IMG/VR virus record: IMGVR_UViG_2660238209_000009
Source: a virus
Lineage: Duplodnaviria; Heunggongvirae; Uroviricota; Caudoviricetes
Reading direction: 5' to 3' (one strand)
Length of the DNA stretch: 16,968 nucleotides
A program made the position numbers. Shown one piece after another: positions 1 through 3,000 of the stretch. The first letter of the stretch is position 1, and every line of letters begins with the position of its first letter.

Positions 1-3000
1 GTTCAGCCTGAATCACCGGTCGCCGATGCGACTGAACCTCAACCCGAATCGGTCATGATGCTGTAACGGGGAGTCAGGGCCATCAGTAAACAGCTGCTGG
101 CCTTTTTCATGTTGTGAGCTTCCGGATTGCGGGAGACGGGGTATGTACCAGATGGAAAAAATCACAACAGGTGTGTCATACACCACGTCAGCGGTGGGAA
201 CGGGCTACTGGTTCCTGCAGTTGCTGGACAGGGTTTCCCCGTCTCAGTGGGCGGCAATAGGCGTGCTGGGGAGTCTGCTGTTTGGTCTGCTGACGTACCT
301 GACGAACCTGTATTTCAAGATTAAAGAAGACCGGCGTAAGGCGGCGCGGGGAGAGTAAGCTGATGAGCAGGAAATTCCGCTATGGTTTATCAGCGGTAGT
401 TCTGGCGCTGATTGCCGCAGGTGCTTCTGCGCCTGAAATCCTCGACCAGTTTCTGGATGAAAAGGAAGGTAACCACACCACGGCATACCGTGATGGTGTG
501 GGTATCTGGACCATCTGCCGTGGAGCCACCCGGGTGGATGGTAAGCCTGTGATTCCTGGCATGAAGCTGTCGAAGGAAAAATGCGACCGGGTTAACGCTA
601 TCGAACGGGATAAGGCGCTGGCATGGGTGGCGAAGAACATCAGAGTGCCACTGACTGAACCCCAGAAAGCGGGTATTGCGTCATTCTGTCCTTACAACAT
701 TGGCCCCGGTAAGTGTTTCCCGTCGACGTTTTATAAACGAATTAATGCAGGTGATCGAAAAGGTGCCTGCGAAGCGATTCGCTGGTGGATTAAGGACGGT
801 GGCAGAGACTGCCGTATCCGCTCAAATAATTGCTACGGTCAGGTATCAAGACGTGACCAGGAGAGTGCGCTGTCATGCTGGGGTATCGACAGGTAAGCAG
901 AATATTTTGCTGAAAAATGACGTTGGCCAACGCGGGCAGATAACACGAAATCCTGCGAACTGGCAAAATGTAAGTGAATAAAGTCAACAAGATTGTTTCA
1001 TGAAGAGGCACCGTAATGGTGCCTTTGTCATTTCTGCGCTTCGCACAAGCGTAAATAAACCAAAGAACCTTTCAGGATGAGCCCTGGTGGATAACCGGCA
1101 GTGGTCTGGTTAACCCTCTTTGGGCTGGTTATTCCTGTGCGCAGGGTTCATCACTAAAAGGAAATAACCGATGAATATGATGACCGTGCCGTTTCACGGC
1201 GATTCTCTTTATGTGGTTAACCATAACGGCGAACCATACGTTCCCATGAAACCTGTCGTTGCGGGGATGGGGCTGGCCTGGCAATCACAGTTGGCTAAGT
1301 TAAGACAGCGTTTTGCGTCAACTATAACGGAAATCGTTATGGTTGCTGAGGATGGGAAACGACGCAATATGGTGTCCCTGCCGCTTCGAAAACTTGCAGG
1401 CTGGTTACAAACCATCAATCCCAACAAAGTAAAACCCGAAATCCGCGGCAAGGTAATCCAGTATCAGGAAGAGTGTGACGATGTTCTCTATGAATACTGG
1501 ACGAAGGGTTTTGTCGTTAATCCCCGTCGAATGAGTGTGATGGAAGAACTCAATCAGGCTTGCGCTGACATGAAACGGGATAAAAACATTGCCAGTGTGT
1601 TTGCTACCGGGCTGAATGAGTGGAAACAGGTTAAATCCGCGCATGTATCAAAAATCCGCACATTGATAAACGAAGCGAATCTGCTGATTGATTTTGTCCT
1701 GGCTGATACAGGCAAAGGGAAAATAACAAAGGCGGATTGATGGAGTGGTGGCTAATGATATCGGATAAACTCATAACGCTGGCGAAGATCCTCTGTGTAA
1801 TCGTCGGCATTTCATTTTTAGTCATGCTGGTTGCCATTTTCTTTTCCACCGCCTGGCGAGTCCTGACGTTATCGGGACTGGTGGGGTGAAAGAGAGATGA
1901 ACCGTGTTCTGTGTGTGGTGATTATTGTCCTGCTGGTAGCCTGTGGTGCGCTTAGTCTGGGGCTGAATCATTACCGCGATAACGCCATAACCTACAAAGA
2001 GCAGCGCGATAAAAAAGTCAGTGAGCTGGAGCTGGCAAATGCAACCATTACTGATATGCAGCAGCGCCAGCGTGATGTTGCTGCACTTGATGCCAGATAC
2101 TCGAGGGAATTAGCCGATGCGAGAGCTGAAAATGAAACTCTTCGCGCTGACGTTGCCGCTGGTTACCGCAGCCTGCGGATCAACGCCACCTGTCCAGGTC
2201 CCGTGCGTGAAGCCACCGGCACCGCCCGCGTGGATAATGCAACCGGCCCCCGACTGGCAGACACCGCTGAACGGGATTATTTCACCCTCAGAGAGAGGCT
2301 GATCACTATGCAAAAACAACTGGAAGGAACCCAGAAGTATATTAATGAGCAGTGCAGATAGAGTTGCCCATATCGATGGGCAACTCATGCAATTATTGTG
2401 AGCAATACACCCGCGCTTCCAGCGGAGTATAAATGCCTAAAGTAATAAAACCGAGCAATCCATTTACGAATGTTTGCTGGGTTTCTGTTTTAACAACATT
2501 TTCTGTGCCGCCACAAATTTTGGCTGCATCGACAGTTTTCTTCTGCCCAATTCCAGAAACGAAGAAATGATGGGTGATGGTTTCCTTTGGTGCTACTGCT
2601 GTCTGTTTGTTTTGAACAGTAAACGTCTGTTGAGCACATCCTGTAATAAGCAGGGCCAGCGCAGTAGCGAGTAGCATTTTTTTCATGGTGTTATTCCCGA
2701 TGCTTTTTGAAGTTCGCAGAATCGTATGTGTAGAAAATTAAACAAACCCTAAACAATGAGTTGAAATTTCATATTGTTAATATTTATTAATGTATGTCAG
2801 GTGCGATGAATCGTCATTGTATTCCCGGATTAACTATGTCCACAGCCCTGACGGGGAACTTCTCTGCGGGAGTGTGCGGGGATAATCAAAAACGATGCAC
2901 ACCGGGTTTTCTCATTTTTCACGAGATGGGAGCGATTTCCCGCGAAGCCGCCTGTCCGGTGCGGTGGTGGAAGAAACCGGATAAAACAACCGCATTGTGC

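Follow-up and report, generated by a model that had tools for sequence, protein, structure and literature searches.

Why should an antirepressor-like gene inside a phage lysis cassette be preceded by a long stretch of non-coding sequence? The question is raised by a viral contig of 16,968 nucleotides (nt) (IMG/VR record IMGVR_UViG_2660238209_000009; the whole stretch is referred to here as the window), which starts in the late region of a 933W/phi24B-type Shiga-toxin (Stx) phage, with genes on the plus strand. The initial annotation placed an Ant-like gene (ant) between the endolysin and the spanins, behind a long non-coding gap. This arrangement was confirmed: R, ant and Rz/Rz1 follow one another (Table 1), and the gap is exactly 274 nt long with no open reading frame (ORF) of 30 or more amino acids (aa) wholly within it. 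Because the ORF is annotated at the same place in Stx-phage records, both the gene and its position were already known. The gap itself contains a structured element at positions 1035-1161. On balance, this is probably one copy of a portable, cis-acting mRNA leader, the predicted fold of which would gate translation of the accessory gene that follows it in lambdoid late operons.

Structure and covariation of the leader element

The conserved element is ~135 nt long and comprises a 5' hairpin (P0), a long hairpin built from three paired regions (P1, P2 and P3) and two pseudoknots (PK1 and PK2). P1 contains the Shine-Dalgarno (SD) sequence, and the 3' end of the element is 9-10 nt away from the start codon of the gene behind it (the cargo gene). 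The window copy folds at -50.3 kcal/mol (z = -3.3). Minimum free energy (MFE) folds of 11 variants, each computed independently, have P0, the long hairpin and a paired SD in common, at -40 to -53 kcal/mol. The 5' strand of PK2 is one nt (A1067) from the anti-SD strand, and its 3' strand is one nt from the 3' strand of P3. The unpaired junction nucleotides A1059, C1073, G1124 and U1136 are near-invariant, as are C1096 and G1098, which lie opposite G1127 and C1125. Short ORFs read in the class sequences differ between classes, and no conserved leader peptide was found in the element.

Covariation was counted over the nested helices and both pseudoknots in 46 distinct sequences. Our first MAFFT and RNAalifold alignments had missed most helices through register errors, and per-class MFE folds and covariance-model alignment were used. 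In the 46 sequences, 83.7% of cells are paired, against 33-48% when the partner strand is slid by 1-3 columns; 25 of the 39 pairs have changed on both sides, and on all five measures the observed value is matched by none of 500 shuffles. The SD helix, P1, is 96.7% paired and four of its six pairs covary. Its variants are CCUUU:AAAGG, CCUG:CAGG, ACCU:AGGU and, in phage P22, CCU:AGG, so the SD is held in a conserved fold and its pairing is kept when its sequence changes. Both sides have changed in 9 of 12 pairs of P2, all five counted pairs of P3 covary, and the stem of P0 covaries as well (GCGCC/GGCGC, GCUUC/GAAGC and GCGUC/GACGU). A conserved structure with compensatory changes thus lies immediately 5' of the start codon.

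The two pseudoknots behave in the same way. PK2, which RNAalifold proposed unprompted, is 95.2% paired, with changes on both sides in four of seven pairs, and is found in at least 11 complementary classes, very divergent copies included. PK1 forms at least five Watson-Crick pairs at a fixed site in 45 of 51 distinct sequences, compared with 4.3% for shuffled loops, and is 88.7% paired on alignment A3. Six PK1 classes were recognized by script (CGCUC:GAGCG, CGCAC:GUGCG, CUCAC:GUGAG, CACAC:GUGUG, CCGCA:UGCGG and CGCCC:GGGCG) and a seventh, CCGAA:UUCGG, by eye in copy L142 (198-350). Six of the 51 sequences fall short: three are G-U variants, two carry a single mismatch and resemble recombinants, and one is the L142 copy, the P0 loop of which was mispredicted. 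Since many of the pairs are G-U, the plus strand is identified as the RNA strand.

One group of copies shows a variable homopolymer. In TerB-type copies (L058 1132-1272, L127 1510-1647, L111 and L128) the G run between the anti-SD and P2 is 6-11 G long (CTTTCAGGGGGG...AGCC). Slippage in the homopolymer or an error in sequencing could explain the difference; if the variation is real, the register at the base of the long hairpin would shift.

A mosaic gap and a terminator-like hairpin

The gap is mosaic. Its first 86 nt (897-982) match Stx2c and other phages at 87-94% identity, with the match ending there, and recur after R in phages that lack ant. Its nt ~125-268 recur directly 5' of unrelated genes in Klebsiella phage 5 LV-2017 and Escherichia phage ECP1. 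By pairwise blastn, the window shares 2-982 with ant-less relatives, and homology resumes at 1758 (phage L008) or 1894 (L007); in L010 it spans the element up to 1183, after which the cargo differs until 1750. These boundaries define an exchangeable module of terminator, leader element and cargo gene. The point at which L008 resumes lies inside a 50-aa ORF, the start of which overlaps the ant stop and which is "hypothetical" in many records (ECs_5707 in Sakai). As a whole, 897-1740 occurs in 309 phage records, and many records of Stx2a phages match it at 100% identity; the ORF is labelled ant or antirepressor there, including in 933W-like phages.

Directly upstream of the element is the hairpin that the initial annotation located at 1006-1024. 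It is present, with GGCACC (1007-1012) pairing to GGUGCC (1018-1023) around the loop GUAAU (1013-1017), and this G+C-rich hairpin at 1007-1023 runs directly into a U-rich tract within the tail UUUGUCAUUUCUG (1024-1036). It folds at -16.9 kcal/mol (z = -4.1 against shuffles). Across 1-3200, five terminator-like sites were found against 3.2 +/- 1.7 expected, which is not above chance. The position of this particular site is conserved all the same: a T-tailed hairpin stands immediately 5' of the element in 51 of 54 distinct contexts, with stems of unrelated sequence, and in ant-less phages, too, R is followed at the corresponding place by a terminator-like hairpin. No sigma-70-like promoter was found between the terminator and the ATG. 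Taken with the 51 contexts, this suggests that the cargo is transcribed only by a terminator-resistant polymerase.

Two further claims held in part. The proposed co-transcription of ant with the lysis genes fits its strand and its place inside the cassette, but a terminator between R and ant means that read-through is required, presumably by Q-modified RNA polymerase only. A structured leader was also correctly anticipated, in that a real, conserved RNA structure is present and plausibly gates expression. The main fold is 1035-1161, however, and not the hairpin, and 897-1003 is not significantly structured (z = -1.6).

Table 1. Features of the lysis cassette and of the leader element in the window.
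Feature	Position	Strand	Basis or remark
Holin S	143-358	+	Phage_holin_2_1
Endolysin R, signal-arrest-release (SAR)-type lysozyme	363-896	+	ORF; Pfam Phage_lysozyme 2.9e-24
R-ant gap, 274 nt	897-1170	+	ORF map
R-distal spacer, co-travels with R	897-982	+	Present after R in ant-less phages too
Exchangeable module (terminator, leader element, cargo gene)	983-1757		blastn against L007/L008/L010
Intrinsic-terminator-like hairpin and T-rich tail	1004-1036	+	Terminator scan (reports 1004-1026), fold
P0 hairpin	stem 1035-1041/1047-1053, loop CGCAC 1042-1046 (PK1 5' strand)	+	MFE, all classes
PK2 5' strand CCAAAGA, in linker	1060-1066	+	RNAalifold; one nt 5' of anti-SD
Anti-SD CCUUU, P1 5' strand	1068-1072	+	Pairs with 1157-1161 in every class fold
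P1 two-pair extension	1074-1075/1154-1155	+	MFE
P2 5' strand (AG, then GAUGAGCCCUG)	1074-1086	+	MFE; P2 pairs 1076-1086/1142-1152
P3 5' strand GGAUAACCGG	1089-1098	+	MFE; pairs with 1125-1134
PK2 3' strand UCUUUGG, 3' end of apical loop	1117-1123	+	Pairs with 1060-1066
P3 3' strand CUGGUUAUUC	1125-1134	+	MFE and covariation
PK1 3' strand GUGCG, P3/P2 internal loop	1137-1141	+	Pairs with P0 loop
P2 3' strand (CAGGGUUCAUC, bulged A1153, CU)	1142-1155	+	MFE and covariation
SD AAAGGA (AAAGG 1157-1161 paired with anti-SD)	1157-1162	+	8 nt 5' of ATG 1171
Cargo gene ant (d_ant in phi24B), 189 aa	1171-1740	+	P22_AR_N and ORF11CD3
Hydrophobic ORF, 50 aa	1737-1889	+	Between ant and Rz
Rz	1897-2361	+	ORF and domain call
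Rz1, embedded in Rz	2117-2302	+	ORF and domain call
bor	2393-2686	-	3' of Rz

Distribution of the element and its cargo genes

We scanned viral contigs with the pattern CTTTCAGG N28-58 GGGCTG N0-10 TTCCTG, which returned 120 loci, ~100 of them true copies, and used a covariance model built from 21 variants to find more, divergent copies. An alignment of four contexts shows conserved blocks from ~1035 to the start codon, each after a different terminator hairpin. The cargo families are unrelated: P22_AR_N, ANT/KilAC, KilA-N, Phage_pRha (with or without ORF11CD3), Bro-N, TerB-like, HNH endonuclease and a primase Zn-ribbon fragment. For example, a 231-aa ANT/KilAC protein is the cargo at the same R-Rz position, and in ECP1 the element also precedes a KilA-N gene. 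By blastn, the boundary of the cargo swap is the start codon; the leader, being conserved as DNA, marks the left boundary of cargo exchange.

Every copy whose context was examined lies in the late region on the late-gene strand, after R (the window), after Rz (L078, P22 and Xenorhabdus) or after Q (a Klebsiella phage). Second and third copies occur in the same phages, for instance after Rz and before a Rha gene in L075 and L078. Copies are found in the genomes of seven Xenorhabdus species, Erwinia, Sodalis and Pseudescherichia, and also in Klebsiella and Salmonella. Among complete E. coli genomes, 851 of 5426 (~16%) have copies by blastn, with a median of 3 and a maximum of 10 per genome; the K-12 cryptic prophages DLP12 and Qin have none. 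In many Stx-type phages (L009, L014, L019, L051 and L089) the element occurs two or three times on the same strand. Typically, one copy follows R, another follows Rz, and a further one, ~5 kb upstream, precedes a TerB-like ORF that in some cases is cut down to 16 aa. In the phage studied here, a further copy may lie just 5' of the window start.

In phage P22 the element (39502-39644) precedes rha and not ant. The rha coding sequence annotated in NC_002371 starts at GTG 39575, inside the conserved leader (region 39502-39650 of L129). An ATG at 39645 has GAAGG 5' of it, and the N-terminus read from this codon, MNELIANHDFDF..., can be aligned to those of other Rha cargo proteins. P22 rha probably starts at 39645, giving a predicted Rha of 178 aa and not 201 aa. 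A second, weak covariance-model match in P22 (37926-38064; 17.4 bits, E 0.007) runs from the late terminator tR' into a long hairpin 180 nt 5' of gene 13 and may be chance or a very distant relative.

Some copies are incomplete or oddly placed. Those at L041 885-1014, L061 3007-3136 and L110 1919-2049 end directly after TTCCTG, at the expected start of the PK1 3' strand, and continue with common unrelated sequence (ATGGCCTT.GACAGAGTGA.TTTTTTCATCGGTGCTATAG...), which looks like a common deletion or insertion event. A 392-bp contig assigned to Xanthomonas pisi (L141) scores 149.5 bits, equal to the window copy, and encodes the start of the same ant; a 700-bp scaffold assigned to Kocuria sabuli (L131) scores 127.5 bits, equal to a Klebsiella-type copy. 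Both are most likely enterobacterial contamination of the assemblies.

The cargo of the window copy is related to P22 Ant in its N-terminal domain, as the initial annotation expected. P22_AR_N (PF10547) matches residues 5-113 of the 189-aa protein (8.5e-45), which is 48% identical over 127 aa to P22 Ant residues 10-136, with no alignment past residue 136. P22 Ant carries P22_AR_C (PF10548) at residues 200-272, whereas the window protein lacks this domain and has ORF11CD3 (Pfam, 2.5e-06) in its place. With P22_AR_C absent, the name antirepressor is for this protein an annotation by partial homology. The PDB holds no solved structure of any relative of the protein. In phi24B the ant gene is named d_ant (PMC4426718). 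In the phi24B "ant" that Fogg et al. studied experimentally, the likeness to P22 Ant is in the C-terminal part (PMC3064807), which points to a different gene from the ant of the window. The suggestion that Ant released from lysing cells derepresses the prophages of neighboring cells found no support, and protein uptake would be needed.

Proposed control of cargo expression and its alternatives

We read the element as a translational gate that is off by default, because the SD lies in the basal helix of a very stable fold and its pairing is kept by compensation. In the proposed mechanism, the two pseudoknots would close the fold into parallel stacks, P1 with P2 (~20 bp) and P3 with PK2 (~17 bp), joined by A1067. 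With a U-turn at the P2/P3 hinge, to which P0 would dock via PK1, the two stacks could run alongside each other, and the closed bundle would bury the SD helix. The upstream terminator would limit cargo transcription to Q-antiterminated late transcripts. Translation would then await a trigger that opens or cleaves the fold; candidate triggers are a small ligand, processing of the RNase III type, and a factor supplied by the host or the phage. The leader DNA may double as the left-hand homology arm for cargo exchange between phages.

Several points weigh against this reading. That PK2 and P1-P2 form together comes from geometric reasoning and not from a computed three-dimensional model, and neither a second, ON conformation nor a conserved helix that competes with the fold was identified. 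With only 5 bp plus 2 bp, the SD helix might be opened by a 30S subunit with ribosomal protein S1. A double pseudoknot far exceeds what is needed to weaken translation, and the fold may serve another purpose. The covariation counts lean towards the structure, since the collection pattern fixed three blocks and the alignment was fitted to a model of the proposed structure, and the sequences counted are mutually related; the P2 figures, for their part, are lowered by a 1-nt register shift in Klebsiella-type rows.

More tentatively, the element could represent a new class of signal-responsive RNA, whether a riboswitch, a switch for a protein or nucleotide signal, or a self-processing RNA. Pathogenic E. 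coli genomes would then carry up to ten copies of such an RNA, and the classical phage P22 would have it as well. Late-operon regulators (Ant, Rha, KilA-N, Bro-N and TerB) would be translated only upon a signal, with the upstream terminator in the same control unit. A riboswitch in the strict sense, in which the predicted double-pseudoknot fold would be an aptamer for a small molecule or ion and the ligand would set closure of the SD helix, seems unlikely. The compactness of the element, its two covarying pseudoknots, its near-invariant unpaired junction nucleotides and the SD inside the closing helix, as in translational OFF riboswitches, all suit such a sensor. So does one leader for unrelated genes, which implies that the signal is not a product of the cargo. 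The cargo genes, however, offer no metabolic hint of a ligand, neither an alternative fold nor an Rfam riboswitch match was found, and it would be unusual for riboswitches to occur solely with accessory genes of prophages in a single bacterial order. Still less probable is a signal for RNA processing or stability, with the P2-P3 helix as an RNase III-type substrate or the fold blocking RNase E, so that cleavage would release the SD and detach the cargo cistron from the lysis mRNA, much as in the lambda N leader and in T7 early mRNAs. The stacked helices span ~20 bp or more, broken by internal loops, and the element sits between cistrons of a long polycistronic late transcript, directly after a 3' hairpin. 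But RNase III substrates need neither two covarying pseudoknots nor a paired SD, and the helix sequences vary freely with no evident specific recognition boxes.

The initial annotation suggested that the leader may hold an attenuator or an antisense-RNA target. The 1006-1024 hairpin would then be a transcriptional attenuator, or an antisense RNA would gate ant as sar does in P22 and c4 in P1. We consider either very unlikely. The hairpin with its U tail does resemble a terminator, but the conserved structure lies downstream of it, so that this structure is unable to control the terminator and the hairpin, which belongs to the R-distal and module boundary, is not an attenuator. The terminator stem also has a different sequence in each context and is present behind R in phages without ant, 897-1003 shows no more structure than shuffles do, no promoter-like site was found, and no conserved alternative (antiterminator) pairing with the terminator stem was found. 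Antisense control has precedents in P22 ant (from the P22 annotation) and, as is generally known, P1 ant, and a 20-nt RNA, 24B_1, has been proposed in silico to bind within d_ant (PMC4426718). Against it, a scan of the window sequence found no minus-strand promoter-like site near 1030-1250, over the leader and the 5' end of ant; Rfam gave no antisense match, C4 included, 897-1760 holds no convincing complement to 24B_1, and the Sp5 R-ant gap has no entry in the Sakai peak list from Hfq cross-linking and analysis of cDNA (CRAC). The pseudoknot partners covary within the same molecule, which favors an intramolecular fold over a trans-RNA target. We give hardly any credence to a function at the DNA level only, with the element acting as a homology "linker" when lambdoid phages exchange modules by recombination and the RNA fold being a by-product. 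The boundaries of cargo replacement match the 3' end of the element, and single phages and genomes hold multiple copies. A linker would select for identity, yet 25 of 39 pairs, including both pseudoknots and the SD helix, have changed on both sides and still pair, and such compensatory changes contradict a purely DNA-level role.

Candidate small RNAs were also set aside. The best ungapped match of 24B_1 (TAACGTTAAGTTGACTCGGG, from HM208303) in 897-1760 is 11 of 20 positions, no better than elsewhere in the window. Anti-sRNAs (RNAs directed against small RNAs) of the AgvB/AsxR type are located 3' of stx2B and not in the R-ant gap. EcOnc06 lies upstream of ECs_3498 in Sp17 and is unrelated. The Pas small RNAs (Storz preprint) are at other positions, and the element is not mentioned there. 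For a trans-RNA partner in the window, complements to the conserved anti-SD strand are no commoner than chance.

The gate proposed here resembles several known systems in part. As in P22 immI (Arc, Mnt and sar antisense RNA), an Ant-family gene would be under tight, partly RNA-level control; in P22, however, ant has its own promoter, operators and a convergent sar promoter, whereas ant in the window lies in a late operon behind a terminator, with no antisense promoter found. P1/P7 c4 (icd-ant) likewise masks a ribosome-binding site (RBS) 5' of an antirepressor gene at the RNA level in a temperate enterobacterial phage. The c4 RNA, once processed, acts in antisense on sites complementary to it, whereas in the window the covarying partners lie within one leader, and Rfam C4 (RF01695) gave no match even at E <= 10. 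In the repZ/repA leaders of IncI-alpha and IncB plasmids, a 5' hairpin loop pairs ~100 nt downstream beside an RBS-occluding helix, as in our element. Those leaders need translation of a leader peptide, and an Inc antisense RNA competes for the loop; the window element has no conserved leader ORF or antisense promoter, adds a second pseudoknot and shares no sequence homology. Pseudoknotted OFF riboswitches such as preQ1-II/III and SAM-II are also compact folds in 5' untranslated regions with the SD in the closing helix and covarying tertiary pairs, but the gene associations of the element are non-metabolic and no Rfam class matches. Like morons (Juhala et al., 2000, cited in PMC4104026), the cargo genes are accessory genes between essential late genes that are exchanged among phages. 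Classical morons have their own promoter 5' and a terminator 3'; the element instead has a terminator 5', no detectable promoter and a shared structured leader for each cargo.

A structured leader that occludes the SD is thus of a known kind, but the double-pseudoknot architecture, the fixed upstream terminator and the portability among Ant, Rha, KilA-N, Bro-N and TerB cargo appear to be uncatalogued. Rfam 15 gave no matches at E <= 1 in 1-3200, and its best match in 985-1185, at 21.9 bits, falls below the gathering score of 90. In the papers that could be searched, queries by locus tag, sequence string and topic turned up no description of the element and none of its conserved strings. At gathering, the only Rfam hit in the whole window is ALIL (16892-16968, 66.7 bits), a pseudoknot and frameshift element of the IS3 family. 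The match is truncated by the right edge of the window, which places the start of an IS3-family insertion sequence there.

The element adds a covariation-supported double-pseudoknot RNA family to much-studied temperate phages, among them P22 (before rha) and 933W/Sakai-type Shiga-toxin phages. For one of its cargo genes, Henthorn and Friedman reportedly found in 1995 that Rha is toxic to phage growth in hosts deficient in integration host factor (IHF). The conserved leader accounts for the swapping of accessory genes exactly at start codons among lambdoid phages. If it gates translation, a whole class of poorly understood regulators expressed late (Ant-like, Rha, KilA-N and Bro-N) would be controlled at one common point.

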